Notes: generated by a model not told the origin, from the sequence alone. A stretch of 64,000 nucleotides of DNA from a virus (IMGVR_UViG_3300008267_000017:1-64000); one strand, 5' to 3'; shown: positions 4,066-43,975, counted from the first letter of the stretch. Numbers and translations are program-made.

Positions 4066-5720
4066 AAGGAAACCTCTTCATCTTCATCAGAAACAACAGC
4101 CCAAGTATCTGCATCAAGTTTGAAAGCATCAGCTACACCCAAATATGACCATGTACGATTTTTAAGCGTAACAATTCGGCAACGTCCTCGTGTACGGTCT
4201 GGCATAATCTCTGGCTCTAATGCCAAGATATTCCAACTCAAAGCCTCTAAGCTGCTGCTACCTCTCAAAGACTCTTTAGTTACTCGCACCCAAAACGGTT
4301 GATCTTCCTTACCTTTAGGTGGCTTAAAAGCATCAGCATTAGTACGATTAATATGACTAATCACGATAATACAAATATCATTAGCTGCGCAGAAAGCAGC
4401 AAGAGTGGTCATCGTCATATCTAGTTCAGCACGTTCATTAGCTACGTCTGGAGAAGTTAGAATAGAAATATGGTCTACCACAATGTAGCGACAGCCTTCT
4501 ACAAAATACATGTGCTTGATCTTGCTCATAAACTCGGACAAAGGGAGTGACCCAAAGTGATCTAACATCACAACTTTATTATCTCCAATGATATTGTCGT
4601 ACACTTTTCTAATATCTTCAAGTGAAGCAACAGAAGTTGGTTTGTTCTTAAACTCTAAGTAATTAACTTTCAGTTGTGAAGCAATCATACGTTGAAGTGT
4701 TTCTTCTGGACGTTCTTCTAAGTAAATCATCCCCACACGCTCCCCTGCAGACATAAAAGCATTCGCAAAGATAGCAGAAATTGTACTCTTGCCAACATTT
4801 GTAGGAGCACATAGTAGAGTCAGTTCACGAGTTCTAAAACCTTTGATTTGATTCATAAGCTTAGGAAACTCTGGAACCATAATACCAACAGGACGTTCTG
4901 CAATCAATTGCTCAAAACTAATATCTTCGGCTTTCAGAATCTTCTCAGCAACATATGGTTTAATTCCAAACGCAGCTAACTTAGCTAATTCCTTACTCTT
5001 ACCTTGTTGAAGATAATCAGAACAATCTTTCATTTCTACGTTATGTGGTAAGTAGAACAAAGGAGCACCCATCAGAGCATTACCTAATGCGTCTCGTGCT
5101 TCACGTCCCTTCATCATACCTTTTAACTTCTCTGCTGCTGTAGCTTCATCGTTGTCCATAGCTAAAACAATAGCATCTTTAAAAGACATCACGAAGTCTT
5201 TATTCTGAAGGACATGTTCTGTCGCAGAAGCTGTTCCAAAACCAATACTTACAACAAAGGGCTTTAAATCAGAGTAAGACGTTCCTTTTACATCGTCAAT
5301 CAACGACTGGTACAAACTGGCTGCACAGAACTCACCTTCAACAATAAACAATTTAGAATGCTTACGCTGATTTTGGTTAGCTAAAGGTTGTCCATACAAT
5401 TGCACATCCTTTTTCAAATTTCCAACTGTTGTGAAATGATACTTCTCATCTTTTGGGATGGTCATATCACGTTTCTTGAAAGCTACAAGCTCTCCCTTCT
5501 GATTGTAGTAAGGGAAATAATATGCAATATGTGTCTTCCCATCGCTAGGACTTAATGCAGTTCTAATGCCAAATAACTCACATGTTTCTTTTGTTAAACC
5601 TCGTTCTGGAATATCCATAAACGGGTACGTTAATACATCCTTCAAACTTTCCTTTGGCTCATATTTTTCTCCATTACTACTCATCTCATCTCCTTTGTTT
5701 TGTTTCCAATAACCCATCAC
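4062..5720 (-). CDS. T7 gp4-like DNA primase-helicase (TOPRIM primase domain plus DnaB-family helicase, no zinc-binding domain seen)
   Basis: TOPRIM motifs IVEGEFCAASL and LAMDNDEAT. Walker A LLCAPTNVGKST, Walker B-like IVVDHIS, and a helicase arginine-finger region. Confidence 0.85.
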   Translation of the reverse strand: MMGYWKQNKGDEMSSNGEKYEPKESLKDVLTYPFMDIPERGLTKETCELFGIRTALSPSDGKTHIAYYFPYYNQKGELVAFKKRDMTIPKDEKYHFTTVGNLKKDVQLYGQPLANQNQRKHSKLFIVEGEFCAASLYQSLIDDVKGTSYSDLKPFVVSIGFGTASATEHVLQNKDFVMSFKDAIVLAMDNDEATAAEKLKGMMKGREARDALGNALMGAPLFYLPHNVEMKDCSDYLQQGKSKELAKLAAFGIKPYVAEKILKAEDISFEQLIAERPVGIMVPEFPKLMNQIKGFRTRELTLLCAPTNVGKSTISAIFANAFMSAGERVGMIYLEERPEETLQRMIASQLKVNYLEFKNKPTSVASLEDIRKVYDNIIGDNKVVMLDHFGSLPLSEFMSKIKHMYFVEGCRYIVVDHISILTSPDVANERAELDMTMTTLAAFCAANDICIIVISHINRTNADAFKPPKGKEDQPFWVRVTKESLRGSSSLEALSWNILALEPEIMPDRTRGRCRIVTLKNRTWSYLGVADAFKLDADTWAVVSDEDEEVSF

Positions 5721-6356: not shown

Positions 6357-6878
6357 TCATGTAACACCTCCATTCTTAGCACAGTGTAATTGGTAAACAC
6401 AACGAGCATAACTGTCAGCTTCTGTCTTGTCAAGACGCTCTTCGACAAAAACTGGTAGAAACAGAGAAGCAATCTTATTATCTCGCTTAGAAATAATGTC
6501 ATTAGCTTTCACTGTAACATAAATACTATAGTCTTGTATAGTCTCTGGAGAATACATTTCCCACCAAGCTTTACGTTGATCATCCGAGAATCCTGTACCT
6601 ACGTCTGATACGAGCAACCTATCTCTAGAAGCCACTGTCAAGCTACCCATCATACCTTTATATTTGTTCGTACCTTCTGTTATACCAATCACTTCCAAAT
6701 CTACTTCAAACTCGATTTTAAGTTTTAAACAGTCTTTTGATGTCCCTGAAGACCACTTAAAATCCTTAGTTTTAATTACACACCCCTCAGAACCGTTGGA
6801 AGTATATTCTGAATAGATTGAATAAGCTTCTTCTAGTGACTCTACTTTGTATGTCTTTACCATTTTAATATTTTTCAT
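6357..6878 (-). CDS. ATP-dependent DNA ligase, C-terminal segment (motifs IV and V, OB domain), translated as a separate ORF with its own RBS
   Basis: EGCVIK (motif IV) and LKLK (motif V). GGAG RBS 8 nt upstream of its ATG, lying inside the 3' end of the HNH gene. Confidence 0.8.
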   Translation of the reverse strand: MKNIKMVKTYKVESLEEAYSIYSEYTSNGSEGCVIKTKDFKWSSGTSKDCLKLKIEFEVDLEVIGITEGTNKYKGMMGSLTVASRDRLLVSDVGTGFSDDQRKAWWEMYSPETIQDYSIYVTVKANDIISKRDNKIASLFLPVFVEERLDKTEADSYARCVYQLHCAKNGGVT

Positions 6879-6881
6879 ATT

Positions 6882-7439
6882 TTATTCTCCGTGTGTCTCA
6901 GTATACCCATAACCTAATAAATTTAACTTTTTAATTTGATTCTGCCTACACTCAATAGCAAGCCGCATTGCTTCATCTTTTCCGTATTTTATAACAGAAA
7001 ATGATTTTTGTCTCATTCTCTTATCCGTGTCATACCAAAAAGCAATATAAGCAGGAAATCTTGAATTTCTAAAATAAACCCCTGTAGTCCCTGTTGAATT
7101 ATTTGGATGCTTACTCCTGTTTCTAGCATTGTTTTCAGCCTTAACAGCTCTTATATTCTCTATTTTATTATCAGTCTTATCCCTGTTAATATGGTCTATT
7201 ACATAACCTTCCCACATGTCTTTGTTGAACATTTCATAAATTATTCTGTGTACTAGATATGTTTTACTTTTTAATTTGACATTATAGTATCCGTGAGAAC
7301 TTTGAGAAACCACTGGGTCTCCTTTATTCACTAAAACTCTTTTATAATATTCACCTGTAAATACACTGACTTGCCACCTCAAACAGCTAGGACTTGTCTC
7401 ATCATAATAAAACCAATCGTGCCAGTTAATTTCACTCAT
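6882..7439 (-). CDS. HNH homing endonuclease with AP2 DNA-binding domain, inserted between the two halves of the DNA ligase gene
   Basis: HNH core VIDHINRDKTDNKIENIRAVKAENNARN. AP2 domain GVYFRNSRFPAYIAFWYDTDKRMRQKSFSVIKYGKDEAMRLA. Its ATG lies 2 nt after the ligase-N stop, and its stop lies 3 nt before the ligase-C ATG. Confidence 0.85.
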   Translation of the reverse strand: MSEINWHDWFYYDETSPSCLRWQVSVFTGEYYKRVLVNKGDPVVSQSSHGYYNVKLKSKTYLVHRIIYEMFNKDMWEGYVIDHINRDKTDNKIENIRAVKAENNARNRSKHPNNSTGTTGVYFRNSRFPAYIAFWYDTDKRMRQKSFSVIKYGKDEAMRLAIECRQNQIKKLNLLGYGYTETHGE

Positions 7440-8280
7440 CTTTTAAAATCCTTTTCAGTGTCTCCAATCTCTCTGTATAAGGCACACTTGATTTACCAGC
7501 TTTAAATTCTGCCACTGTCAAACAATCCCAAGCTGTCAACTCAAATGCGAGATTATCCCCTACTTCCCCACCCTTAAGAACACTATTCAAAATACCATTT
7601 CCTGTCTTTCGGTCTAAAGGAACACCTAATGTAGCAGCTTCTCCATACACTAATAATTCTCCCACCACTACAAACCCTTCAGGAAGTCCTACAGCAAGCT
7701 TTTCAGCGAATTCTGGAGGATACTTGCTACCAGCTCGTGTAATCGCTTCAGGAGCCTTTCCCGCCTCTTTAACAAGGTAGCAGAAACTACCATCAAGCTT
7801 CTCTTGTACGAAGAATGACTTGAGCTTACTAAAACGCTCTTTTACTTTAACATCCATTAGTGAGCATCTTTGGTAAGGTGGAATAAAATACAAATCAGGA
7901 AACACTTTCAAAATCATTGTGTCACCTACACCAGCTCCGATAGAGCGTTTGATGAGAAGTTCTAGAAGCTCTTGACCTTGTTTGTTTAAGTGCTTATACT
8001 GATAAGTCAACCAAGTCTCTGCTTCTTTTCCAGTTACTTTACGATCTGCTAAATACCACACAACATTAGACAATATTTTAAAGTTTATATCGTGCTCTGT
8101 GTCATATTGATCTGTAACTTTAGTAATTTTTGTTTGATAATAACTAATAGCAGGGTCATACACTGCCTTCAAATAAGCCTTCAACAGCTCATTGTCCTTA
8201 TTAGCTTCCAAAATAGCTGTCTTAGCATTTGAGCCAGAAGCATTCTGCAGTTCTTTAATAATTGTATATAAATTACTCAT
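7432..8280 (-). CDS. ATP-dependent DNA ligase, N-terminal adenylation segment (motifs I, III, IIIa)
   Basis: KLDGSF (motif I KxDG) and VVGELLVYGE (motif III). Start refined to MSNLY, which has AAGAGGAG 7 nt upstream. Confidence 0.8.
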   Translation of the reverse strand: MSNLYTIIKELQNASGSNAKTAILEANKDNELLKAYLKAVYDPAISYYQTKITKVTDQYDTEHDINFKILSNVVWYLADRKVTGKEAETWLTYQYKHLNKQGQELLELLIKRSIGAGVGDTMILKVFPDLYFIPPYQRCSLMDVKVKERFSKLKSFFVQEKLDGSFCYLVKEAGKAPEAITRAGSKYPPEFAEKLAVGLPEGFVVVGELLVYGEAATLGVPLDRKTGNGILNSVLKGGEVGDNLAFELTAWDCLTVAEFKAGKSSVPYTERLETLKRILKDE

Positions 8281-8455
8281 TAACATTCTCCTCTTGATTA
8301 TCACGACCCTCATTATGCAACTGACTAGCAGCAACCTCTCGTAATACATTTAATGAATTATACATCTCTGCAGGAGTGTAGTGTTCTATATCTCTGACAA
8401 TTGCTTCTAGTTTCTTCTTGAAATAGTGAGCATCCAGTCCGTACCTGTTGTTCAT
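8273..8455 (-). CDS. hypothetical protein
   Basis: Small ORF whose stop overlaps the ligase start. Confidence 0.35.
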   Translation of the reverse strand: MNNRYGLDAHYFKKKLEAIVRDIEHYTPAEMYNSLNVLREVAASQLHNEGRDNQEENVNE

Positions 8456-8930: not shown

Positions 8931-9128
8931 CTATTTAAATAATTTAGTTCGCATAATTAGAGCTACTAACAAAACAATAAATCCACCAAAAGAAGATAAG
9001 ATACATTGTACTATGGCTAAATCACTATTGATGAAGTCTGAGAAGCTATCTTGTTTTACATTATGCAGTGATAACAAACCTAGTAATCCTGAAGTCACCC
9101 ACATAATAATAAATAGAAATTCGATCAT
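8931..9128 (-). CDS. small membrane protein (2 predicted TM helices)
   Basis: Hydrophobic segments LFIIMWVTSGLLGLL and GFIVLLVALIM. Immediately downstream of the SPFH gene. Confidence 0.4.
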   Translation of the reverse strand: MIEFLFIIMWVTSGLLGLLSLHNVKQDSFSDFINSDLAIVQCILSSFGGFIVLLVALIMRTKLFK

Positions 9129-9129
9129 A

Positions 9130-9930
9130 TTACTTCCCTCCTACATTAACCATACCTTTGAAATCCATCGGCACAACAATCGTATTCACTTTACCTGCAG
9201 CAATACCCTCAGCAATTTTCATTTGTGCTTGAGCATTCATGTAAGCAATACTTTGTCCACTATTTGCTGCCAATGCTGCCATACGTTCAGATTCTTTCTT
9301 TGCAATCTCAACTTCTGTGGCTTTGATTTTCAATTCATTCTGAGCACGTACATACTCTGTGGCAGATTTGAGAATTTCAGCATTAGGAGCTACATTACGA
9401 ACTTGGATTGCAGAAATAGTGATACTCGTGTCAAGCTTCTCCTCTCGTAAAGACTCATTCAACAATACTAAAATTTCTTGCTCAATCTTAGCGCGACTGT
9501 CTGCTACTTCAAGTGCTTTGTACTGACGGATGGACTTGTAAGTGGCATTATTCACAAGTGTTGTGATGTAATTGTACATCAAATAAATGTCTCCGTCTTC
9601 TGCTGTGGCGTGAAAGCTCTTGGCTTTACTTGCATACAATTCAGATACGCTGCTAGGTGAAATGTTGTATACCACTGTCAAATCAAAGTCAGCTAATGCG
9701 CTATTGTCTGCTGTCAATGGTGTCTTATTTTCAACTGACAACGAAATATCCTTAACAGGAAATGTTAATACATTACCAAACATTGTTTGATTCCAACTAC
9801 CAGAAGGAAGTTCTGTCATCTGGATTTGTTTTGACATATCTTCTCGTACACCTACTTCACCTGTAGAGATGCGAGTACATCCTGTAGCTGCAATAACTAA
9901 TGATAATGCAATAATAATTTTCTTCATGTG
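9130..9930 (-). CDS. SPFH/band-7 (prohibitin-like) domain lipoprotein
   Basis: Signal peptide with lipobox MKKIIIALSLVIAATGC. The C-terminal Ala/Glu-rich coiled coil is typical of SPFH proteins. Start refined to MKK. Confidence 0.65.
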   Translation of the reverse strand, partial: HMKKIIIALSLVIAATGCTRISTGEVGVREDMSKQIQMTELPSGSWNQTMFGNVLTFPVKDISLSVENKTPLTADNSALADFDLTVVYNISPSSVSELYASKAKSFHATAEDGDIYLMYNYITTLVNNATYKSIRQYKALEVADSRAKIEQEILVLLNESLREEKLDTSITISAIQVRNVAPNAEILKSATEYVRAQNELKIKATEVEIAKKESERMAALAANSGQSIAYMNAQAQMKIAEGIAAGKVNTIVVPMDFKGMVNVGGK

Positions 9931-10125: not shown

Positions 10126-10977
10126 CTATACAGCCATTGGTGCAGAAATTGATGGGTGACAGTAATAATCTCCTAAATGAATATCGTCAGGTTGCAAACT
10201 CTGAATCCAATCATAAGGTGAAATATCACAATCTTCATTCCAGCCCTTCATAATTAGCCAAGGCAAATAGTATTCTTCCCGTGACAACTGCTCTTTTACT
10301 TGTTCTATGTGGTTCTCATAAATATGCACATCACCTAAGAACATCTTCAAATGTCGTGGCTTATATCCTGTAGCCTCCGCAACAATGTGCAGTAGCAATG
10401 CATACGAAGCAATATTAAAAGGAATTCCTAAGAACAAGTCACAAGATCGTTGATTCATCGTCATAGACAACTCACGAGTTTCAACATTTGCGTAAAATTG
10501 AAAATCTGTATGGCATGGAGGTAGTGCCATTTGATCTACTTTTAGTGGATTCCATGCTGTAATACGAATACGTCTACTTGTCGGGTTATTTACAATCTCA
10601 TTTAAGGCATTCTTGATCTGGTTAACACCTTCACCATTATAGTTAATCCACTGTGAGCCGTAGATACATCCAAGGTCATCCTCTCCCTTACGTACGGGAT
10701 TCTTTAACCAAGCTTCATTCTCATTTGCATTCTGGTTCCAGATATTGCAACCAAGCTTCCGAAAGTCTGCAGCATTTGTATAGCCTCGCAAGAAACCTAA
10801 TAATTCTCCCTTAACGGCATTAAAAGCAAGTTTCTTCGTAGTAATAGCTGGAAAGCCATCATTCATATCAAATGACAGCATCTCTCCAACAATAGAATAA
10901 CAAGGGATTCCTGTGCGATTGTTTTGCAAGATTCCTTCGTCCAACACCTTCTGTAATAAATTGTGATACTGTTTCAT
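10126..10977 (-). CDS. thyA: thymidylate synthase (ThyA family; a dUMP/dCMP hydroxymethylase cannot be excluded)
   Basis: RTGIPCYSIVG folate-binding region, catalytic-Cys motif ALPPCH, DLFLGIPFNIASYALL. Confidence 0.85.
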   Translation of the reverse strand: MKQYHNLLQKVLDEGILQNNRTGIPCYSIVGEMLSFDMNDGFPAITTKKLAFNAVKGELLGFLRGYTNAADFRKLGCNIWNQNANENEAWLKNPVRKGEDDLGCIYGSQWINYNGEGVNQIKNALNEIVNNPTSRRIRITAWNPLKVDQMALPPCHTDFQFYANVETRELSMTMNQRSCDLFLGIPFNIASYALLLHIVAEATGYKPRHLKMFLGDVHIYENHIEQVKEQLSREEYYLPWLIMKGWNEDCDISPYDWIQSLQPDDIHLGDYYCHPSISAPMAV

Positions 10978-11243
10978 CGTACAAGTTTTCCTTTCGGCTC
11001 TGCCTCATTTAATTCATAAACACCTATGAACGGTGGATTTGGATATTCACTATAAGTTGTTGTAAGACCCCGTATATGACTCTCAAGTTGAACAACATAT
11101 TCTCGCAAGTCTTGTATTTCTTGATGCTTGAACAAATCTAATTTGTGCGCTATGTCAAGGCAATCTGTAGAAGTAAGTTTTCTATGATAGCAACATTCAT
11201 CCACATGTTCAATATAACTTTTAATGCGTCTAAAAACAATCAT
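10974..11243 (-). CDS. hypothetical protein
   Basis: ATGA overlap with thyA. Confidence 0.4.
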   Translation of the reverse strand: MIVFRRIKSYIEHVDECCYHRKLTSTDCLDIAHKLDLFKHQEIQDLREYVVQLESHIRGLTTTYSEYPNPPFIGVYELNEAEPKGKLVR

Positions 11244-11252
11244 TCTTCTCTC

Positions 11253-11456
11253 CTATCGAATCCCATAATATTTATCAAACACAAACTCTGCCACTCCAAA
11301 TTTGTACCTTTCGTTGTAACTATTAGTACGAATTGAGGGTGTGCTGTTAGCAATCCACCTGTCAGCATCTCCCTTACGTCTATAAAACTGAGACACTTGT
11401 TGCATTGTCACTTCATTTATGACGCAATAGGCTTTTACTTTTTCAATTGTTTTCAT
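11253..11456 (-). CDS. hypothetical protein
   Basis: ORF in the array. Confidence 0.4.
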   Translation of the reverse strand: MKTIEKVKAYCVINEVTMQQVSQFYRRKGDADRWIANSTPSIRTNSYNERYKFGVAEFVFDKYYGIR

Positions 11457-11698
11457 GTGTTCTCCTTATAATCTTTCAAGATAATAGCCTTCTCTCCAGC
11501 ACATTGAAGACGTTTCATCCTGCCTTTGTAGTAGTCTGTACCAGATACTCGCACACAATGCATCTGCTTATCAATAGCGTCAACAATATAGATATTCTGA
11601 ACAGCTCTAGTCTTATTCTCTAACTCAGCATAAGCTAAATAGTCTCCCACTTTTATTTCTTCTCCAAACATGTCTTTGAACATATCATCCTCCAGCAT
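11453..11698 (-). CDS. hypothetical protein
   Basis: Overlapping stop and start. Confidence 0.4.
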   Translation of the reverse strand: MLEDDMFKDMFGEEIKVGDYLAYAELENKTRAVQNIYIVDAIDKQMHCVRVSGTDYYKGRMKRLQCAGEKAIILKDYKENT

Positions 11699-12005
11699 TA
11701 CGATTATTCATCTGTGTAGCCACTTCATCATAAACCATATCTGCAATATAGTCCTTCAACAATACGCCAAGCTGACTCTCAAATGTTGGAATCTGCTCTG
11801 GAATTTCATCTTTTGAGCGAGGGTTTAAAATGCCGAGCTTGACAGCTACATCATAATGAACAAGCTTCTTAATTTCAGTTGTATGTTGATAAGCTCCATA
11901 CCCCGCTGTATTTTCTGGAGTAGATTTCAATGATACGTTCACAAATTCCTTACGATCACCCTGCTTACCACTAATATCACAAATATATGTTGTTACAATT
12001 GCCAT
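11685..12005 (-). CDS. hypothetical protein (start refined to MAIVTT)
   Basis: ORF; the internal Met is preferred. Confidence 0.4.
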   Translation of the reverse strand: MAIVTTYICDISGKQGDRKEFVNVSLKSTPENTAGYGAYQHTTEIKKLVHYDVAVKLGILNPRSKDEIPEQIPTFESQLGVLLKDYIADMVYDEVATQMNNRNAGG

Positions 12006-15538: not shown

Positions 15539-15727
15539 TTAGGTTCATAAGTAATTTGCTAGGCTCAATTCTAGGCATATTATCAGAGTATGTCAAGAAG
15601 TTTGCATCTGATTCTTTATAATTATTGAAAAGTATCATTTCCATAGCATAAGACTTTCCGTAATGAGTGCCTCCTCCGACAATTAGAACTCTCTTATCAT
15701 CTTTTACGTAGAGTTCTTCCTTCATAC
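15525..15727 (-). CDS. hypothetical protein (start refined to MKEEL, ATGA-coupled to the recombinase stop)
   Basis: GGGTHYGKS is P-loop-like but short. Confidence 0.35.
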
Positions 15728-16372
15728 ACTCCCTTTCATAGAAATTTGCTTCTGCAACTGGTTCCATTTCGCTTCTAATTGCTTGAAAGCCTCTGCACAA
15801 GAATATTGCTTCTTGTACGTGCTTACACTTTTCTCAGATACACCATGTCGGTGAGCCACATTCATACGAGAAACACCAGCTTGCAAGTCTGCTAGGATAG
15901 CTTTGATTTTGTCTGGGGAGTTTGTTTGTCTTTTGCCAAGTATCACCCCTTCAGCTTTGCGTCTAGCTAATCCCGATATTACACGCTTCTTGATACTTTT
16001 GAGTTCATTAGCTGCCAACACAGCATGAATGTCAAACTCAATTTTATCATCCTCTCCTTGCAGAACTTTACCAATTTGAAGGATGTTAATCTTCACTCCA
16101 CGTTTGAGAAGTGTTTCAGCAATCGAGATAGTATTACCAGAGCCACGACCCCAACGGTCTACACGAGTGCTGTAAATGGTTGTGTCAGAGTCTACTTCCT
16201 CAATCATACGAGAGAACCCTGCACGTTCATACACACTCTTTGCACCACTAATTCCGTGGTCGATGTAGTAGGCATCGAATTTACCACCGATAAATTCTTC
16301 AAGCTCAAAAATTTGATTTTCTGGGCATTGATCTGTGCGCGAAACACGAGCATAAAGTACACGTTTTGACAT
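15722..16372 (-). CDS. small serine recombinase (resolvase/invertase family) with C-terminal HTH
   Basis: RVLYARVSRTDQ holds the catalytic Ser. VDRWGRGSGNTISIAETLLKRGVKINIL resembles the resolvase DRLGRS block. C-terminal HTH VSRMNVAHRHGVSEKSVSTYKK. Confidence 0.85.
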   Translation of the reverse strand: MSKRVLYARVSRTDQCPENQIFELEEFIGGKFDAYYIDHGISGAKSVYERAGFSRMIEEVDSDTTIYSTRVDRWGRGSGNTISIAETLLKRGVKINILQIGKVLQGEDDKIEFDIHAVLAANELKSIKKRVISGLARRKAEGVILGKRQTNSPDKIKAILADLQAGVSRMNVAHRHGVSEKSVSTYKKQYSCAEAFKQLEAKWNQLQKQISMKGSV

Positions 16373-25200: not shown

Positions 25201-25812
25201 TTAGTCTGTAATTTCAACTGTGAAGTTATTTAAAGCTTCGATTACTTTAGGATGTATCATTCCTTCATACTTTATTGCGAGTTCTTTAGCAAGAGCTTCC
25301 TTGTAAACTTTGTAAGCTTGGAAGGCTTCTTCTGGAGTGTCGTAGAATCCTAGATGTTTACTGCAGCTTCTGCCATCACTTGCAGTTGCTCTGTACATCC
25401 CCTTCAATTTGTAGAAGTCTACACCTATTGGATGGCTGCCTCTGTCTCCTTTCCTTTTTGTCAAGAAAGTATTAACTTGCCTTGGAATAAAGAAGCTTGT
25501 ATCCTCTGAGTAAAGTTTATTTCCTTTGAGCACAACGTCCTTGTCCAATTGATAATCTTTTAACTTAAATCCTATCTGAGACTGACACCACTCTGCGAAA
25601 TATTGAAAGTTCTTAAAATTATCAGAAGCTTCGCAACCTATATAACTAGGATACCTTACATGGAGTTTCGCAGAGTAACACCTCTCCAGCATATTTTGCC
25701 ATAAGATGTATTCTTTCGTACGTTTTCTACCGATACTTCTAAGATGTTTCCCTTTTTCAGAAACTCCGACTCCTTGCACTAACCTCTTACCCATTCTTAT
25801 TCCTCTCCTCAA
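25201..25812 (-). CDS. homing-endonuclease-like protein, paralog B (degenerate HNH-like plus AP2-like, ends ...VEITD)
   Basis: QLDKDVVLKGNKLYS and C-terminal RGSHPIGVDF...GFYDTPEEAFQAYKVYKEALAKELA. Paralog of 3499-4065 and 38758-39732. Confidence 0.6.
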   Translation of the reverse strand: MRRGIRMGKRLVQGVGVSEKGKHLRSIGRKRTKEYILWQNMLERCYSAKLHVRYPSYIGCEASDNFKNFQYFAEWCQSQIGFKLKDYQLDKDVVLKGNKLYSEDTSFFIPRQVNTFLTKRKGDRGSHPIGVDFYKLKGMYRATASDGRSCSKHLGFYDTPEEAFQAYKVYKEALAKELAIKYEGMIHPKVIEALNNFTVEITD

Positions 25813-28249: not shown

Positions 28250-30316
28250 TTAAAATACAATTTTCAATACACGAGTGAAAGAGCCATTAACACGGCACAC
28301 AACACTATTCTTTTGGGTACTACTAAATCCTACACCAGATAGTTGAGCTTCAGCTATACCTGTCTTAAGCTTACTACCGACCATCTCCAACACTTTACGA
28401 TGCTTATCAAGCTCTGGAGACAAGAACTCGTTATAGAAGCCACGAGCTACATCTTCATTATTACATCCTTCTAGCATAAAGAAGTAATGTTTGTTCCCAA
28501 CTTCTTGCTCATCCCAGAAGTTAGGAGACAACATAATGGATTTTACAGGAACAAACTTGTTTGTGTCAACATCCCAGATTGTTTTAGAAGCACTTTCTGG
28601 TTTCAAATGATGTTCAATAGTGAAAACACCATTCTTCAAAATAACTTCAGCAACTGTAACCCATTCTTTATCTTTTAATGGTTTATCGTATTCATATTCG
28701 TACACAACACCACCAAATTCAATCTCAGCTTTAAAACCTCCTTGCGTTGGGGAGCGGAAACGCCAATTATGAATTTTACAAATATACTTACCTTCAGGCA
28801 TACGGCTGATATCTGGGAAAGTGATATTCTCTACAGGGACATATCCAGCAGGGGCTTCACTAGTGAAGTCAACATCTTGGACACCTCCAGAACTAGTGTG
28901 CTGACGTTTATTCCAACCTACACGTTCATTATTACCATAGTTATCATGAATACCATTCTCAGGAGTATTCTTATTAGCTGGCATAAACACATGTAAATCC
29001 ATTAATGAGCAATTACGCTTGTCGTAGTTCCAAGTATGGGAGAAACGGAATGCTCCAGAGACACTACCTCCACGAGCCACAACTTGCTTACGTAAATCAG
29101 AGTCTGCAAAGTCCCCTGTATAGCTCCACGAGAATTTATTATTCCATTTAAACATATTTGGAGCTGTCACATCAACAGGAGCAATTAAGCTGACAAAGTT
29201 ATTCTTGTGGGAGTTCTCTAACATCAATTCTACTGACGTTGCAGTAGGAAGTACGTCCTTTAAAAACTTCTCAATGGAGATTTCTTCTACACCAGACATT
29301 TCCTTCTGTTTTGTCTTAGCTGTAGGCTTCAAGTCATCCAGAATAGAACCTGTTAATTGTTTCTTCACAGCACGATTGGCAAACAATACATTACTGATAG
29401 AAATATCATCTAATGTAGCATATCGACGTTCTAAAGCAGATGTGTATCCAAGAGCTTCAATTGTTTCTTTAGCATTATCAATCATCTTCTGTGTTACAAG
29501 AGCTGTAGGGCGTTTGTAGTTAGCTGGAGCTACTTTCTGTTCAAATGATTTAACAGCTTTTTCTAAATCTTCCCCATCAGAGAGGTCTGTAAGCAAGCTA
29601 CCAATCACTGTGTTACGAATACGACCTGCATGAGCACTACCATCAATATATTGCCATACGAACAGCTCTTTATTCTCAGCTTTATCAAATTCAGCTTTAA
29701 GCTTCTTGAATGACACAACATTAGCCTTGTGTTCTTCTCCCCGATATAAGCTATTCTGTGCAATCAGTTCTAACACAGTGTCAATCGCATCAACAGTGAT
29801 TTCTTTCAAGCCTCGTAGTGTGACATCATAAGCAGCTTTAGCTTCACCTTGCAATGTACCAATTCTATCTTTGTTGAATACAAATTTAGTAGGAAGATTT
29901 ACATAGAAATGCTCCCATGTTGTAGCGCCAGATACTGTGGCTTCAAAGTTCTTGTCTGTTCCAACATGGTTTTCATAATGCATAAACTTATTGCTGACAG
30001 CCTTAGACTTTACAAGAGCTGACAAAGCATCTGCAACAACTTGGTAAGCTGGCTCACTAGGGATAGAGATGTCCCAGATAGAGACAAGCTTGTTATCTAC
30101 AATGGTGACAACATTCCCCATGTTACGGATGAATTGTTTGCAGCAAGAGCAATCATGCTCTGTACGCTCACGGAATATAGGGTTACTACCTTGTGGGAAT
30201 GCTTGCAAGTAGGTTTCATTCAGGTCAACACCCTCTACGTTGACAGTGAACAAGCCTGTAGCTTGCATAGCTTGGAATTGTTTTTGTACAGCTTGTTTAA
30301 AAGTAATAAAGTTCAT
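28250..30316 (-). CDS. large hypothetical protein (688 aa), function not recognised
   Basis: Long ORF with an AAGGAGAGAATATG RBS and an upstream promoter. N-terminal HDCSCCKQF cluster. No confident motif match. Confidence 0.6.
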   Translation of the reverse strand: MNFITFKQAVQKQFQAMQATGLFTVNVEGVDLNETYLQAFPQGSNPIFRERTEHDCSCCKQFIRNMGNVVTIVDNKLVSIWDISIPSEPAYQVVADALSALVKSKAVSNKFMHYENHVGTDKNFEATVSGATTWEHFYVNLPTKFVFNKDRIGTLQGEAKAAYDVTLRGLKEITVDAIDTVLELIAQNSLYRGEEHKANVVSFKKLKAEFDKAENKELFVWQYIDGSAHAGRIRNTVIGSLLTDLSDGEDLEKAVKSFEQKVAPANYKRPTALVTQKMIDNAKETIEALGYTSALERRYATLDDISISNVLFANRAVKKQLTGSILDDLKPTAKTKQKEMSGVEEISIEKFLKDVLPTATSVELMLENSHKNNFVSLIAPVDVTAPNMFKWNNKFSWSYTGDFADSDLRKQVVARGGSVSGAFRFSHTWNYDKRNCSLMDLHVFMPANKNTPENGIHDNYGNNERVGWNKRQHTSSGGVQDVDFTSEAPAGYVPVENITFPDISRMPEGKYICKIHNWRFRSPTQGGFKAEIEFGGVVYEYEYDKPLKDKEWVTVAEVILKNGVFTIEHHLKPESASKTIWDVDTNKFVPVKSIMLSPNFWDEQEVGNKHYFFMLEGCNNEDVARGFYNEFLSPELDKHRKVLEMVGSKLKTGIAEAQLSGVGFSSTQKNSVVCRVNGSFTRVLKIVF

Positions 30317-30402: not shown

Positions 30403-31668
30403 TTAAGCTAATTCCTTATAATCTTTCCCATCAATTGTAACAGTAACAGGAACCATTCCTTCTGTCCTCAGATACTTCCTGTACATATTCCCCATAATCT
30501 CTTGTAGCCAATTCTTATGTGTTGTTTGCACAATAAAGCTATCATGGATGGGGAGCACCACAACATCATCCTCCACTCCAGCAGATATTATCTCTAAAGC
30601 TATCTCACTGTCAAGGTTTTGCAGCTTATATGCTAAAGGCTTACTCTGCCACAATATCACTTGTAATGGAAGGAATGAATAGGCTTCCTCAATCTTAGAT
30701 AGTAACACACTACCACTTCTGATTGTACACTCTCTGTTTTTTAGGTTCAAGTATTGCTGTATTGCTGAACAAGCTATATGTCTCTTAGAATTATTAAGGA
30801 GAATATTGAAAGCTCTCTTCACAGCTTCCCTGTTAGCATCTATCATTTGTTCTTCCTGTGTTAGAGGGAGGAGATAGGCATCAACCCCATAAGGCACTTT
30901 ATCTGTGCATAAGTACATATCAATAAGCATTCTTAAATGCAATGCACTATAATCAATCTCTACAGCAGACACACCATTTATCATGATAGACTGTCTATAG
31001 CAACTCTTAATATTCTGTATCTCAGAGCGATAGAGCCTTCCTGTAAAACCTATTTCTTGATTAAAGATACGAGTAAGGCAGCAATTAGCTTCATGCACTA
31101 TATTGTCCTTGTCAGAGTAGGTTATGTGTTGATCTGCTATGTATTGGTTGTATGTTGTCAAACTATCTCTAGTATATCTTGTAACATCACATTCCTTGTA
31201 GTCTACCATATTCTTATCCTTGTCTTTTAAAACAACTCTTTGTGTATCAACAACAATTGTCTTCTTACTATCTATAGCATTACTACCTGTAGAGAACATA
31301 TTCATTAGGAGGTCTGTAGCAACAAAAGAGCTAGAGATAGCTTCATGGTCGTAATAGCCATAATCCCTAGGAGAGATGTTGTTTACTATGTACCCTTCTT
31401 TCTCTAGAAATTCTAATGCTTTAATTATTCCATATACACTCAATTGTTTAGGATTATATTTCTTAGGCAGTACACTCTGACTCTTGCTTCTGGAATAAAA
31501 TATATTCTTTCCTTTGTTAGCTAGGACATTAACAACAATAACCCCTATCTCTTTCTTCCACTTACAATTCATCCATCTTACTTTACCCACTATAGCTCTA
31601 GGTACTTTAACACTAAGAGAGATGAATACACCACTCCTATCTATAATACTATCATCTTCCATAAACAC
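30403..31668 (-). CDS. compact family-A polymerase-like protein: palm motifs A (EIDYSALHLRM), B-like (REAVKRAFNILL) and C (LPIHDSF), with a novel 175-aa N-domain and no exonuclease domain
   Basis: DYSALHLRM matches Pol I motif A DYSQIELR. Motif C is HDS, as in T7 RNAP (HDSFG), not the HDE of DNA polymerases. A to C spacing is 137 aa. Confidence 0.5.
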   Translation of the reverse strand: MFMEDDSIIDRSGVFISLSVKVPRAIVGKVRWMNCKWKKEIGVIVVNVLANKGKNIFYSRSKSQSVLPKKYNPKQLSVYGIIKALEFLEKEGYIVNNISPRDYGYYDHEAISSSFVATDLLMNMFSTGSNAIDSKKTIVVDTQRVVLKDKDKNMVDYKECDVTRYTRDSLTTYNQYIADQHITYSDKDNIVHEANCCLTRIFNQEIGFTGRLYRSEIQNIKSCYRQSIMINGVSAVEIDYSALHLRMLIDMYLCTDKVPYGVDAYLLPLTQEEQMIDANREAVKRAFNILLNNSKRHIACSAIQQYLNLKNRECTIRSGSVLLSKIEEAYSFLPLQVILWQSKPLAYKLQNLDSEIALEIISAGVEDDVVVLPIHDSFIVQTTHKNWLQEIMGNMYRKYLRTEGMVPVTVTIDGKDYKELA

Positions 31669-31765
31669 TCCTCCATACTACTTACTTATTGATACCCCTA
31701 TAAAGGGAAAGAATAATGCTGAAACCCAATACCAGCTTAGGTTTCAAGCCATTTTAGTTAAGTAA

Positions 31766-32176: not shown

Positions 32177-32334
32177 TTCACACTCCCTTCCACAACAGCA
32201 AGCACACGGTTTGTATTGACAGCCTTCTTAATACGATTAATCTCCATATCAATATCATCAACAGCCTCTGGAGAGTCATCTAGTAATTTACCTAATGTGC
32301 CATCTAGTTTTCGATAGTAGTAATGTACGTTCAT
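32176..32334 (-). CDS. small protein (52 aa)
   Basis: ATGA overlap on both sides. Confidence 0.3.
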
Positions 32335-33146
32335 TTAGTTCCCTTTCCTACATTTTGGTTGCGAGCACTCACTTTACTCTTTGATAGGGTAAACGGGGTT
32401 TCAATAATATTCTTTAAGAACATTCCATCAATATCATCTACACAGTGATTTAATACAACACTGCGTTTGAAATGTGTATCACCTTTGTGAAATTTAAGAA
32501 GCTCTTCTGGAATCTTGCTTACAACTTCATTCTTGAAGCTGAATGTACCGTATTTAAAGAACTCTGGCAAATCTTCCCAAGAATTACCAGCTTCATGTAG
32601 CATTTGTATCTTTTGTTCACTATTTTTGTGCATGATAGCTTTATGTCCAAATACAGTGTGAGCTGCCATAGAGATAGAGTTCTTTTTAGCGTCAAGCCAG
32701 CGCCATTTGAGAACATTCTCTACGTCTTCCAAATCTGGTACATTGAATACACGACAATCGAAGAAAGCTAATATATCTGACTTCTCTGTGATAGTTGTAC
32801 TAAGTTCTTTGTTAAATTTAGCTGTTGCCATACTTGCAAGTACAGATGAAAGCTTCTGAACCCTGCCTCCGAACAATGTTTGTTGATGTGGTGCAGTGAT
32901 GTAATAAATCAATGTAATCTCATCACTCTGGGTGTACCCGATCTTGGCATCAGTTTTCTCCACTAAATAATTCATGGTGTCAATCATTACATCTGAAAGA
33001 CGTTTATCAAATGGACGTGCCAACCCTTTGCAAAACGTGTGAAAAGCCTTGCCATCAAGTCGAACACATATTGGATTCTTTTCATCTAAGTGTTGCTCAG
33101 AGTCTTTTTCATAAGCTTTGATAACATCCCCTAATTTGTCGTTCAT
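32331..33146 (-). CDS. Thg1-like protein (tRNA-His guanylyltransferase family 3'-5' nucleotidyltransferase)
   Basis: ICVRLDGKAFHTF matches Thg1 VVRLDGRNFHRF. IGYTQSDEITLIY matches IAYGQSDEYSFVF, which carries the catalytic carboxylates. Confidence 0.8.
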   Translation of the reverse strand: MNDKLGDVIKAYEKDSEQHLDEKNPICVRLDGKAFHTFCKGLARPFDKRLSDVMIDTMNYLVEKTDAKIGYTQSDEITLIYYITAPHQQTLFGGRVQKLSSVLASMATAKFNKELSTTITEKSDILAFFDCRVFNVPDLEDVENVLKWRWLDAKKNSISMAAHTVFGHKAIMHKNSEQKIQMLHEAGNSWEDLPEFFKYGTFSFKNEVVSKIPEELLKFHKGDTHFKRSVVLNHCVDDIDGMFLKNIIETPFTLSKSKVSARNQNVGKGTK

Positions 33147-33285: not shown

Positions 33286-33840
33286 TTATTGTTTACAAAT
33301 AGTGGCAGACAAGCTATCTCTGGTATAACGAGTAATATCACATTCTTTATACCCTACAGTATTCTTACTGTCATCCTTTAACACAACCCTCTGTGTATCA
33401 ACCACTACTGTCTGTTTACTGTTGATAACATTTCTACCTATAGAGAATAAGTCAATTAGTTTATCTGTTGCTATAAAGCTACTTGACATAGCTTCATGGT
33501 CATACCAACCAAAGTCTCTAGGTGCTATGTTATTGATGACATATCCTTCAGCTTCTAAATACTCTAGAGCTTTGATTATCCCCCTGTTTGTTATTCCTTT
33601 AGGATTATATTGCTTTGGTAACATAGCTTCTGCTGTATCTCTATTGTAGAATATATTCTTTCCTTTATGAGCTAGTACATTAACGACAATAACACCTATC
33701 TCTTGCTTATATCTACAATTCATATACCTTACTTTGCTACTAACTCCTCTAGGTACTTTAACACTGAGAGAGATGAATACACCACTCATGTCTATTACAT
33801 CTATATCCATATCTAATCTCCTTATCCTATTCAATGACAC
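33286..33840 (-). CDS. truncated paralog (N-domain only, 184 aa) of the polymerase-like gene at 30403-31668
   Basis: More than 60 % amino-acid identity over about 170 aa (SGVFISLSVKVPR...GVIVVNVL..KGKNIFY...TVVVDTQRVVLKD). The DNA is about 70 % identical, including the flanking upstream sequence. Confidence 0.5.
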   Translation of the reverse strand: MSLNRIRRLDMDIDVIDMSGVFISLSVKVPRGVSSKVRYMNCRYKQEIGVIVVNVLAHKGKNIFYNRDTAEAMLPKQYNPKGITNRGIIKALEYLEAEGYVINNIAPRDFGWYDHEAMSSSFIATDKLIDLFSIGRNVINSKQTVVVDTQRVVLKDDSKNTVGYKECDITRYTRDSLSATICKQ

Positions 33841-38757: not shown

Positions 38758-39732
38758 ATGGAAAAGAAAAGAGTACATTCAAATAAGCCGCAAATTAGTG
38801 TTGGAGATGTTTTCAAGACGAATTGTTATGGAGATGTGGAAGTAATTGAATACCTTAACGCGAATAAAATCAAGGTGAAGTTCATAGTTGACGGATACCA
38901 GAGATACACAACATCTGGTAATTTGCAAAAGGGTAAAGTGAAGAATCCCACTATACCAACTATTGAACATGCAGGAAGAGCATCGAAGAATGTTTGTATT
39001 GGTGGAATCTATAAGAACACAAATGGATTGCAATTCAAAGTAGTTGAATACACAGATGCAAAGAATGTTAAAGTGGAGTTTGAGTCTGGTTATATTACAA
39101 ACTGTTCTCTTCAACGAGTTCGTGACGGAGGAATATCTGATAACTTCTCTCCATCCAGATTTCAAGGGTATTTAGGTACTTTAGTAGGTGTTGAAGTTAA
39201 AAACGTGGCAAAGACTAAGGAGCATATTCACTGGTCAAGTATGTTAGCAAGATGTTTCTGTGAGGAATACCAAGATAAGTATCCGACTTATAAAGGTACA
39301 ACTATCTGTGAAGAGTGGTTAAATTTTACAGTTTTTGCTAAATGGTGTAGAGAACAGCCTGAGTTTTTGTTGGGACATAGAGTTTTTCTGGATAAGGATA
39401 TTCTAAATAAAGGAAACAAGCACTATAGTCCAAATACATGTACTTTTGTCCCTCACGCTGTTAATACTTTGTTTACTAAAGCGGATGCAAGCAGAGGTAA
39501 GTATCCTATAGGGGTGTCTTATTGCACAACTCGAAATACAATAACTGCCTGTGTCCGCATTGATAAGCGAACTAAATACTTGGGCAGGTTTGCAAATGCC
39601 ACTGATGCATTCTACGCATACAAGAAAGCAAAAGAGGTTTATATTAAAGAACTTGCTGAGAAATTTAAAACAGTTATTTCAAACGAGTGTTACTTAGCAA
39701 TGTACAGGTATGAGGTTGAAATAACAGATTAG
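38758..39732 (+). CDS. homing-endonuclease-like protein, paralog C (N-terminal extension, degenerate HNH-like, AP2-like, ends ...VEITD), immediately upstream of the terminase gene
   Basis: FLDKDILNKGNKHYS and C-terminal RGKYPIGVSY...LGRFANATDAFYAYKKAKEVYIKELA. GAGGAGCAAAATATG RBS. Confidence 0.6.
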   Translation: MEKKRVHSNKPQISVGDVFKTNCYGDVEVIEYLNANKIKVKFIVDGYQRYTTSGNLQKGKVKNPTIPTIEHAGRASKNVCIGGIYKNTNGLQFKVVEYTDAKNVKVEFESGYITNCSLQRVRDGGISDNFSPSRFQGYLGTLVGVEVKNVAKTKEHIHWSSMLARCFCEEYQDKYPTYKGTTICEEWLNFTVFAKWCREQPEFLLGHRVFLDKDILNKGNKHYSPNTCTFVPHAVNTLFTKADASRGKYPIGVSYCTTRNTITACVRIDKRTKYLGRFANATDAFYAYKKAKEVYIKELAEKFKTVISNECYLAMYRYEVEITD

Positions 39733-40377: not shown

Positions 40378-41541
40378 AACTTATTTGAACACTTGATTTT
40401 AATTGACGAAGCTGCAGATAAGTGGACTGAGAAACAAGCCTTGTTTTTGCAGTCTCGATTGCGTACAGTTGGCTCTGATATCCACCCACAACTGGTTATG
40501 TCCTGCAACCCAGACCCTAATAGTTTCTTATTTGAATGGGTTAAGTTCTGTCTTGATGAAGACACAGGAGTTCCAAAAGAAGGTACTGAGCATCTTATTA
40601 GATGGTTCTGTGTAGAGGATAACAAAGCTAAATGGGCTGGTAGTCCAGAAGAGTGCTATGAATTATATGGTGCTCCTAAGAATCTAATTTATGCTCATGG
40701 AATGACAGAAGAACAAATGAATACCTTCTCTAAAGAAGAGAAGATGAGGTTATTCATGCCTAAGTCATTTAGGTTTATCCCAACTGGTGTTTTTGACAAC
40801 CCTTATCTACTTCCCCCGAAGAATACAAGTTACCTAGCTTCCTTATTATCTCAACCTCATGTGAATCAGTTAAAATTTCTTCACGGAAGTTGGACTGCAA
40901 GAGAAGAAGGTAGTATGTACTTCGACAGAAAATGGGTGGAGATTGTTGACTTCCCTCCTGTCAATGCTACAGCTAGGGTTAGAGCTTGGGACTTTGCTTC
41001 AGAAGAGAAGACAAAAACTAACAATCCCGATTGGACAGCAGGTGTAAAAATGTCTAGGGATAGAAATGGTATTTACTATATCGAAGATGTTGTCCGTATC
41101 CAAGCTCGTACTGATAAAGTATTAAAAACTGTTATTGAAACAGCTAAATCTGACGGACTGAACGAATGTGATGTGTGTATTCCAGTTGACCCTGCAGCAG
41201 CAGGTAAAACAGCAGCGCACTTCTATCTTAAAGTGTTGGCAGAGAATGGAGTGGCAGCAAAGAAAGCACAATCTTCTGGACACAGTAGCAAACTTACACG
41301 TTTCAAACCATTCTGTTCTTTAGCAGAAAGTGGCAGCGTGAAAGTAGTTAGAGGTGAATGGAATGATGCATTCTTTGCAGAACTTGAAGCCTTCTCTGGT
41401 GAAAAAGCAATCGAGAGAACTCAAAAGAATGACCAAGTGGATGCTACCTCAGATAGTTTTAACCTTCTAGCAAGACAGTTACAACTGCCTACATTTAGTA
41501 TTCCTAGCCTCACTAAAGCTTCTCCAGTACCAACAATATAA
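40378..41541 (+). CDS. terminase large subunit, exon 2 (Walker B LILIDEA and C-terminal nuclease domain)
   Basis: Walker B hhhhDE LILIDEAADKW. The frame is open from 40360. The C-terminal region is consistent with an RNaseH-like terminase nuclease. Confidence 0.8.
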   Translation, partial: NLFEHLILIDEAADKWTEKQALFLQSRLRTVGSDIHPQLVMSCNPDPNSFLFEWVKFCLDEDTGVPKEGTEHLIRWFCVEDNKAKWAGSPEECYELYGAPKNLIYAHGMTEEQMNTFSKEEKMRLFMPKSFRFIPTGVFDNPYLLPPKNTSYLASLLSQPHVNQLKFLHGSWTAREEGSMYFDRKWVEIVDFPPVNATARVRAWDFASEEKTKTNNPDWTAGVKMSRDRNGIYYIEDVVRIQARTDKVLKTVIETAKSDGLNECDVCIPVDPAAAGKTAAHFYLKVLAENGVAAKKAQSSGHSSKLTRFKPFCSLAESGSVKVVRGEWNDAFFAELEAFSGEKAIERTQKNDQVDATSDSFNLLARQLQLPTFSIPSLTKASPVPTI

Positions 41542-43168: not shown

Positions 43169-43975
43169 ATGGCATTTGTTTACTGGATTCATTTACCAGA
43201 ACATACTGACGTTACAAAAGACGGATATGTGGGCTTCACTAGTAAGACTGTTGAATCAAGATTTAAGCAACACAGAGATGACTCTATCAGAGAGAAGTAC
43301 AAGAATCTACCGATATACAATGCTATGAATAAGTATGGAAATTTGTTAGTAGTGGAGACTCTGGTAGAGGGGTCTAATGAGTATTGTCTCATGATTGAAA
43401 ACAAGTTACGTCCTGAAGTCAAGATTGGTTGGAATATAAAAATCGGTGGTGATTTTGGTTCACTAGGGGTAAAAGCAAGTGAAGAGACTAAGTTGAAGAT
43501 GTCTGAAACTCGCAGAGGAGAGTCTAACGGCTTTTACGGCAAAGAACACTCTGAGGAAACAAAGCAAAAACTACGAGAAATTAATTTAGGTAAGAAGGCT
43601 TCTGAAGAAACCAAAAATAAATTGTCTGCAATGAGGAAGGGTAAGAAAAGGAATTTAAGCCCTGAGCAGCGAAAGAAGATGAGTGACAGGTCTAAGGCTC
43701 AAGTTATGTCAGAATCTGCAAAACTCAAGATGTCTATTAGTAAGACAGGTATTTATGTAGCTTGGAGGAGTTGTGCAGCTACAGATATATGGCTGTGTGC
43801 AAAAGATGTTTATGAGTATTTAGAAGAGAACCCTTCTAACGGTAGACATAAGACAGCACATCATTTCAAAGTAACTCCTAATCAAATTAAAACTATACAC
43901 AAGAAAATACGATCAGGTTGGAACCCAAACGAAGATCAAGAATACCTTTCTTGGTTAGAAGAAAAGAAAGGATAA
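43169..43975 (+). CDS. GIY-YIG homing endonuclease with NUMOD3 repeats, inserted between portal and prohead protease
   Basis: GIY-YIG core FVYWIHLPEH...DGYVGFTSKTVESRFKQH. Three NUMOD3-like repeats: SEETKLKMSETRRG, SEETKQKLREINLGKK and SEETKNKLSAMRKGKK. Confidence 0.8.
   Translation: MAFVYWIHLPEHTDVTKDGYVGFTSKTVESRFKQHRDDSIREKYKNLPIYNAMNKYGNLLVVETLVEGSNEYCLMIENKLRPEVKIGWNIKIGGDFGSLGVKASEETKLKMSETRRGESNGFYGKEHSEETKQKLREINLGKKASEETKNKLSAMRKGKKRNLSPEQRKKMSDRSKAQVMSESAKLKMSISKTGIYVAWRSCAATDIWLCAKDVYEYLEENPSNGRHKTAHHFKVTPNQIKTIHKKIRSGWNPNEDQEYLSWLEEKKG

Follow-up and report, generated by a model that had tools for sequence, protein, structure and literature searches.

A phage-encoded, winged-helix-fused member of the TV-Pol family of minimal family-A polymerases

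TV-Pols, polymerases with a minimal PolA-like core and no nuclease, were defined by Iyer, Abhiman and Aravind (2008, Biol Direct 3:39; PMC2579912). They have a small thumb, formed by an N-terminal unit of two antiparallel helices, a β-hairpin with an absolutely conserved Arg, two palm Asp residues, and fingers of the helix-turn-helix (HTH) type with an RxxxK motif and a conserved acidic residue (PMC2579912). A subset carries an extra N-terminal globular domain, sometimes encoded by a separate adjacent open reading frame (ORF), and these N-domain TV-Pols are found beside resolvases, lambda-type integrases, or transposases (PMC2579912). TV-Pols coexist with the normal replication enzymes of a genome, including in phages that have their own replicase; they were proposed to be part of replicative transposons and were argued to displace prim-pols (PMC2579912). 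Here, we describe a minus-strand gene at positions 30403..31662 of a 64,000-nucleotide (nt) stretch of viral DNA (IMGVR_UViG_3300008267_000017:1-64000; hereafter, the window), whose product is a new member of the TV-Pol family and represents a phage-resident clade in which a winged helix is fused to the polymerase core.

The sole TV-Pol characterised biochemically, and an atypical member of the family, is CcPol, which together with MP forms the primase-polymerase of SCCmec (Bebel et al., 2020, PMC7581432; Rice, 2023, PMC10061031). CcPol is template-dependent, prefers deoxynucleoside triphosphates (dNTPs), needs its two Asp residues, and extends DNA and RNA primers; it has reverse transcriptase and terminal transferase side activities, and it primes de novo only when bound to MP, a small OB-fold partner that binds single-stranded DNA (PMC7581432).

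The gene is the single long ORF of the interval 30403-31668 in the ORF listing of the window and lies on the minus strand; the plus-strand translation of this interval contains stops throughout. Counted from a GTG at 31668, the ORF encodes 421 amino acids (aa), and counted from an ATG at 31662 it encodes 419. The start was placed at the ATG because the Shine-Dalgarno sequence GGAGGA (31669..31674, minus strand, read from the sequence) lies 6 nt 5' of it and would abut the GTG, and because a database protein identical to the window protein (P0001) is also 419 aa long. The complete gene extends from this ATG, with its ribosome-binding site, to a TAA at 30403-30405. A preliminary description of the locus, made from sequence alone, had correctly singled out the long ORF but gave it 421 aa; its two catalytic Asp residues, D239 and D376, are both present and become D237 and D374 after the start shift.

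The AlphaFold2 model of the window protein (predicted local distance difference test score, 92.7) matched the palm and fingers of PolA and RNA polymerases (RNAPs) over ~260 residues in a structure search, in which the N-terminus, an α/β domain, matched MarR-type winged helices. The structural similarity extended equally to mitochondrial and T7 RNAPs. As modelled, the protein comprises a winged helix, a helical linker, and a palm-plus-fingers core of ~245 residues without an exonuclease. The N-terminal region (residues 1-175; 31138..31662, minus strand) contains the predicted MarR-like winged helix at ~22-115 and, C-terminal to it, a helical segment that is a linker or resembles a thumb, with helices at 117-123, 128-139, and 159-176 in the model. 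The C-terminal core (residues 176-419; 30406..31137, minus strand) has the PolA/single-subunit RNAP fold. Eleven proteins of 400-450 aa in BFVD have the full two-domain architecture (TM 0.55-0.86). The family-A palm fold suggested in the preliminary description was recovered by the structural comparison with PolA/RNAP palms, and no exonuclease domain was found, as that description had held, nor a Pfam domain of any kind. The N-terminal 175 aa, which it called unrecognised, do form a separate region, but one in which the model places a MarR-like winged helix at ~22-115.

Conservation was counted over 63 aligned homologs, some sharing as little as 20% identity with the query. G208, R209, R223, E235, D237, Y263, N290, H373, D374, and S375 were invariant, and R278 and K282 were kept in 62 homologs; position 242 is His in 51 and Q348 is present in 58, while D351 is Asp in 59 and Glu in the other 4. 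The β-hairpin segment LTRIFNQEIGFTGRLYR (31027..31077, minus strand, as are all motifs), placed by its 63/63 conservation and by the hhalign register, contains the invariant G208-R209, with the Arg predicted to contact template/primer. The acidic residue of the TV-Pol fingers is represented by D351, which stands with the conserved Q348 in LQNLDSE (30604..30624), as judged from conservation and the feature list in PMC2579912. Motif A, AVEIDYSALHLRM (30928..30966), holds the invariant E235, the catalytic D237, and H242 at the steric-gate position, and was assigned by conservation and hhalign register; motif B, the O-helix REAVKRAFNILLN (30793..30831), with R278, K282, N286 (K+4), and the invariant N290 (K+8), was assigned by conservation and by its register with the TV-Pol clade. 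Motif C, LPIHDSFI (30532..30555), assigned by conservation, contains the invariant H373-D374-S375 and the second catalytic Asp. The two-metal active site is complete and conserved. We take the H242 position to be that of Klenow E710 and T7 DNA polymerase (DNAP) E480 in the established PolA numbering, and the K+4/K+8 positions of motif B to be those of Phe/Tyr in PolA and of Tyr639 in T7 RNAP. Motifs A, B, and C had already been read in palm order in the preliminary description (EIDYSALHLRM, 235-245; REAVKRAFNILL, 278-289; LPIHDSF, 370-376), as had the combination of a DNAP-like motif A with an RNAP-like HDS motif C; both readings hold, and the HDS triplet is invariant in the 63 homologs. Because the key residues are invariant over homologs with identity as low as 20%, the motif resemblance is not due to chance.

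The four sequence hallmarks of TV-Pols can all be recognised in the window protein. It has the minimal core without a fused nuclease; the hairpin Arg (G208-R209, 63/63) corresponds in the alignments to the GRxYE hairpin of the Ma-LMM01 clade and to T7 DNAP R429; the palm Asp pair (D237 and D374) is present in every homolog; and the fingers carry RxxxK (R278/K282) in 62/63 and an acidic residue at the D351 position in 63/63. The Microcystis phage Ma-LMM01 is named as a carrier of a TV-Pol element (PMC2579912). In this phage, MAP_030 (506 aa) adjoins an IS605-type transposase pair and has a motif pattern that parallels that of the window protein (NYDVVKCH / VKTAVLAVINGA / LLQRIEVDS / QHDGALI), and from this pattern we infer that MAP_030 is the Ma-LMM01 TV-Pol. 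MAP_134, annotated as a 'putative DNA primase', was also considered and rejected, being an ordinary DnaG/TOPRIM primase. The family hidden Markov model (HMM), run with filters off over all of Ma-LMM01, gave no match.

The profile comparison with TV-Pols was made on the MAP_030 clade. With hhalign, the family profile matched the single MAP_030 sequence with an expectation value (E) of 0.014 and a 7-sequence MAP_030 profile with E 0.0015. An exhaustive HMMER search seeded on the MAP_030 clade yielded 96 representatives, and against a 48-sequence profile of the clade the match reached a probability of 93.9% and E 1.5e-7; the match thus improved stepwise with deeper sampling on the MAP_030 side. 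The alignment was in register over the hairpin Arg, motif A, and motif B. Members of the MAP_030 clade were also matched by the family HMM (P0195, 27.8 bits; P0238, 20.6; P0197, 14.3), with E of ~6e-9, 1e-6, and 8e-5, respectively, in a search space of 99 sequences. A canonical PolA control, which was a small profile, gave E 0.17 with the correct register (T7 DNAP R429 with R209, D475 with D237, and E480 with H242). His at motif A Asp+5 and Asn at motif B Lys+8 are common to the window family and the MAP_030 clade, unlike PolA. Since the TV-Pol sequence hallmarks are all present and the profile match to the MAP_030 clade is closer than that to PolA, we assign the window protein to the TV-Pol family and not to a new class. 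Recovery of the resemblance in profile searches, the check put forward in the preliminary description, was obtained with the TV-Pol clade; the PolA alignment was in register but only at E 0.17. The core of that description, a compact PolA-fold enzyme apart from the main replicase, is confirmed by the fold, the motifs, and the presence of a separate PolA gene.

Four caveats apply to the family assignment. The text of PMC2579912 does not name the TV-Pol gene of Ma-LMM01; the significant hhalign match spans 78 columns and stops short of motif C; the MAP_030-clade profile alone found no PolA match among PDB sequences; and Sputnik V13 was not among the top 50 BFVD structural matches. In the profile homology search, the matches listed were in-family members only and included no helicase fusion and no organism of the 2008 paper. 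Comparison of the family profile by hhalign with single T7 DNAP and single T7 RNAP sequences gave spurious alignments only.

The clade also differs in several respects from TV-Pols as described. No fusion to, or neighbouring gene for, a D5-type helicase was seen for the window family. The 2008 paper predicts an all-helical N-domain, whereas that of the window protein is modelled as an α/β winged helix, and the two may or may not match. The gene is, moreover, a stable syntenic component of a lytic tailed-phage group and not itself an obvious inserted element. It resembles TV-Pols in having an extra N-terminal domain, which here is also encoded by a stand-alone ORF near the polymerase gene, in the integrase/resolvase neighbourhoods of its bacterial homologs, and in a phage that keeps its own replicase. 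Like the window protein, CcPol is a pared-down A-family polymerase; it belongs to a mobile element and cannot work without its two Asp residues. Unlike the window protein, however, CcPol keeps part of a 3'-5' exonuclease fold, lacks the TV-Pol N-terminal domain, and uses the separate MP from an operon that has a helicase. No small MP-like partner is conserved across the phage relatives, no helicase gene adjoins the polymerase gene in the window or in the relatives compared, and none is enriched near the bacterial homologs; the arrangement is not of the CcPol-MP type, with neither an MP partner in a helicase operon nor an exonuclease-remnant N-terminus.

Canonical family-A polymerases (Klenow, Taq, T7 gp5; PF00476) are more distant. 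The window protein has no DNA_pol_A (PF00476) match, no exonuclease, no RxxxKxxxFxxxYG, and no HDE; it has His for the steric-gate Glu, Ser for the motif C Glu, and Asn both for Phe/Tyr at K+4 and for Tyr at K+8, and its core is ~245 residues, compared with ~400 or more. The HDS motif C and the equal structural similarity to RNAPs, with no phage RNAP in the window, would instead suit a minimal single-subunit RNAP, acting as an RNA primase or as a small transcriptase whose winged helix reads a promoter. We consider this distinctly unlikely. N290 is invariant at the position of T7 RNAP Y639, and a bulky His (H242; 51/63) stands at that of G542, which leaves room for the 2'-OH, so that the rNTP-selecting Tyr and the steric-gate Gly of T7-like single-subunit RNAPs, including the small N4 RNAPII, are both missing. 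Also missing are the large promoter-opening N-domain and the specificity loop, and the protein has 419 aa versus 883. The only characterised TV-Pol favours dNTPs, frequent sigma-70-like promoter matches in the region suggest use of the host RNAP, and the bacterial homologs occur in integrative elements, not in transcription contexts. Because the steric gate holds a bulky His, an invariant Asn replaces the rNTP-selecting Tyr, and CcPol favours dNTPs, the window enzyme probably prefers dNTPs as well. If it did make RNA, it would be the smallest known T7-type RNA-synthesising polymerase, with a ~245-residue core serving as a winged-helix-guided primase or mini-transcriptase, or acting on RNA with Thg1-type repair genes; this is a long shot.

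Our preferred reading, to which we give a probability of about 0.6, is that the protein is a DNA-targeted, low-processivity primase-polymerase of the TV-Pol branch that serves as an accessory starter beside a T7-like replisome. The core (176-419) would carry out template-directed nucleotidyl transfer by the standard two-metal mechanism, with D237 of motif A and D374 of motif C binding the metals, R209 on the β-hairpin contacting the template/primer, and R278/K282 on the O-helix holding the incoming triphosphate. Its products would be short and of low fidelity because the enzyme lacks a proofreading exonuclease and its thumb is vestigial at best. The MarR-like winged helix (within 1-175) most likely serves to hold the enzyme on DNA, perhaps at particular sites. 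As CcPol primes de novo only with MP, no MP-like partner is conserved here, and a DNA-binding fold is fused to the core, the winged helix may supply the template or site binding needed for initiation, making the protein a self-contained, non-proofreading primase-polymerase. The bacterial homologs would then be replication starters of small integrase- or resolvase-bearing elements, and the phage enzyme an accessory starter or restarter of DNA synthesis beside the T7-like replisome. Fusion of a winged helix to a primase is known from plasmid and phage initiator-primases, such as AEP-type prim-pols and the priming initiators of the ColE2 Rep type. The proposed analogy is functional: a site-binding domain brings a primer-making active site to a replication start, with a PolA-type palm and HTH fingers here versus the AEP fold there.

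The replisome in question is encoded in the same window. The main family-A DNA polymerase occupies two adjacent minus-strand ORFs, 103-1389 and 1395-1910 (PF00476/phrog_17); the latter matches the exonuclease region, and the former the polymerase domain, with PF00476 covered only to model position 334/381, so the gene may be split or interrupted and continue past the window edge. A gp4-like primase-helicase (4062-5720), a ligase, a thymidylate synthase, and structural genes of a long-tailed phage are also present. The T7-like DNA polymerase that the preliminary description placed elsewhere in the phage was accordingly located at 103-1910, together with the primase-helicase.

Homologs occur in 34 deposited phage genomes. 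Within its own lineage the gene keeps its position, in an operon downstream of PhoH and a ClpP-like protease, and the proteins of syntenic relatives are 77%, 53%, and 44% identical to the window protein; another phage, of 88 kb, has a homolog together with a full PolA and a primase-helicase. Because the operon position is the same across relatives down to 44% identity, we regard it as an accessory gene that has been kept over a long time, not as one inserted sporadically. When the surroundings of the gene were searched for iterons or origin-like repeats, only the paralog repeat described below and short two-copy matches came up.

This repeat belongs to a truncated second allele 2.1 kb upstream (33286..33810, minus strand), an intact 174-aa ORF with its own AAGGAG ribosome-binding site that encodes the N-terminal winged-helix region only. 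The copy shares 69% identity with the full gene and 89% with P0003, which is the full-length allele at exactly this position in the relative L004; its ORF stops at the domain boundary, and a GC-rich hairpin and a T run come next. With the full gene it makes up a diverged direct repeat (~485 nt; 31159-31644 versus 33310-33795, 2151 nt apart) that brackets a Thg1-like gene and three small ORFs. The small ORFs upstream of the truncated copy are L004-like, one being 97% identical, and those upstream of the full-length gene resemble the relative L095. Given the direct repeat and the match of each copy's flanks to a different relative, the locus looks like two allelic cassettes joined by recombination. 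The truncated copy may be a scar left by recombination, or it may function as a DNA-binding protein on its own; N-domains encoded separately beside TV-Pol genes have been reported (PMC2579912).

The tandem alleles, one cut exactly at the domain boundary and the two with L004-type and L095-type flanks, would also fit a selfish mobile-element gene that copies and spreads its own cassette and does nothing for phage replication. Homing endonucleases abound in this genome, splitting the ligase, terminase, and PolA genes, the wider family resides in integrative elements, and TV-Pols have been proposed for replicative transposons (PMC2579912). We nevertheless think a purely selfish cassette unlikely: its position is syntenic down to 44% identity, the catalytic residues are all intact, and no recombinase, transposase, or terminal repeats bound the gene, the nearest serine recombinase being ~14 kb away. 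The truncated copy, retaining an intact ORF and ribosome-binding site for the winged helix alone, further suggests that this domain may work by itself, and the full-length protein could in principle be a catalytically dead polymerase fold that regulates through DNA binding by its winged helix only. The two-metal and triphosphate residues are, however, invariant or nearly so over 63 sequences, which would be unexpected in a degenerate domain and makes such a regulator hardly credible.

The integrase/resolvase association of TV-Pols is found for the bacterial homologs and not for the window gene, next to which neither a recombinase nor a helicase lies. Scanning species-representative genomes for L[PS][IV]HDSFI[VT] returned ~295 loci, mostly in Alphaproteobacteria but also in Beta- and Gammaproteobacteria, Bacteroidota, and other groups. 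When ORFs within four genes of 80 loci were clustered, 30/80 had a P4-type tyrosine integrase, in most cases upstream and on the same strand, while 22/80 had a serine recombinase. A Pfam tally of the 150 nearest ORFs gave Phage_integrase 17, Resolvase 10, DUF6538 integrase N-domains 9, and large serine Recombinase 6, with no enrichment of a replicative helicase; individual loci adjoin restriction-modification genes and integrases. This neighbourhood is the one described for N-domain TV-Pols (PMC2579912). The best 'bacterial genome' match, L014 (a 6.9-kb contig of a Sphingobacterium metagenome-assembled genome, MAG), has PhoH beside the homolog, as in the phage lineage, and is probably a phage fragment binned into the MAG and not a chromosomal element.

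Another homolog, P0063 (L097:5426-8175; MAG GCA_964311055.1), has the polymerase domain at the C-terminus of the antiviral reverse transcriptase Drt4, with residues 1-304 matching Drt4 model positions 192-501 (E 7e-103). An overlapping 208-aa ORF upstream encodes the N-terminal part of the reverse transcriptase in a different frame, so the gene may be either frameshifted or mis-assembled; if the fusion is true, a reverse transcriptase is paired with a second polymerase or primase. Together with restriction-modification islands beside some bacterial homologs, the side activities of CcPol (terminal transferase and reverse transcriptase), and an operon that contains Thg1 in the window and, in L004, NADAR, Macro, and RNA ligase 1, this fusion could speak for a specialised repair, tailing, or counter-defence polymerase engaged in gap filling, translesion synthesis, terminal-transferase-like tailing, or synthesis of an anti-defence DNA product. 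We regard such a role as improbable, since early/middle phage operons are functionally mixed, which makes guilt by association weak, and the dominant conserved neighbours are recombinases, not defence genes. The window protein matches no PADLOC model; on this ground and that of the recombinase neighbours, a defence-system role was set aside.

The TV-Pol assignment is not evident from standard libraries. The window protein has no match at E<=1 in Pfam, PF00476 included, and none in NCBIfam or PADLOC; its sole PHROG match is the unnamed phrog_4756. Against PDB sequences, phmmer with the window protein gave no match, and the family profile gave only sub-significant matches to Taq (E ~0.7). With the family missing from Pfam, NCBIfam, and PADLOC and unnamed in PHROG, TV-Pol-type genes are called 'hypothetical' almost everywhere because profile libraries miss them; deposited phage homologs are labelled 'hypothetical protein', with one exception labelled 'DNA polymerase'. 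The literature search found no paper that describes or assays this winged-helix-fused polymerase clade.

TV-Pols have been proposed to stand close to what Pol I-type DNA polymerases and T7-type RNAPs were in their ancestral, minimal form. The phage clade offers a compact, confidently modelled single chain in which the predicted DNA-binding module is fused to the polymerase and not supplied by a partner. It raises the questions of whether a ~245-residue PolA-fold core can prime de novo, how the sugar is selected when the canonical Glu and Tyr become His and Asn, and why a lytic phage with a full T7-like replisome has a second polymerase. It will not surprise a specialist but provides a good experimental handle on an understudied family, and a very small engineered polymerase is a possible use.

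Several neighbouring features of the window were also recorded. A terminator-like hairpin (31719..31747, minus strand), predicted by a consensus scan only, lies between a 71-aa ORF upstream and the polymerase gene. The Thg1-like tRNA-His guanylyltransferase/3'-5' polymerase (32331-33146, minus strand; PF04446, E 2.6e-32; phrog_4717) is itself a palm-domain polymerase and sits between the two copies of the TV-Pol-like gene; no functional Thg1/TV-Pol link was found in the literature. In relatives, the same operon contains NADAR, Macro, and T4-type RNA ligase 1 genes (L004:6876-7319, 9103-9576, and 10658-11746; L095:6236-6664), as well as PhoH, the ClpP-like gene, and a metallophosphoesterase, a set reminiscent of RNA-repair and ADP-ribosylation-reversal counter-defence functions. 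Directly downstream of the polymerase gene, 28250-30316 (minus strand) encodes a 688-aa DUF8224/phrog_1735 protein that is widespread in unrelated large phages (Kuttervirus, Bacillus, and Alteromonas phages), where it is labelled once 'putative DNA-directed RNA polymerase' and once 'galactose-binding domain protein'; its place beside the TV-Pol-like gene is not conserved among related phages.

The serine recombinase/DNA invertase (15722-16372, minus strand) lies ~14 kb from the TV-Pol-like gene, in a phage that otherwise looks lytic. Selfish endonucleases are unusually numerous in this genome, with three phrog_953 HNH homing endonucleases and another between the portal and head-protease genes (coordinates of the four: 3499-4065 and 25201-25812 on the minus strand, 38758-39732 and 43169-43975 on the plus strand). 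The ORF for the large terminase (40393-41541) matches its profile in the C-terminal part only, which suggests interruption, and the ATP-dependent DNA ligase gene (6357-8349, minus strand) is split into an N-part (7432-8349) and a C-part (6357-6878) with an HNH endonuclease ORF (6882-7439) between them.
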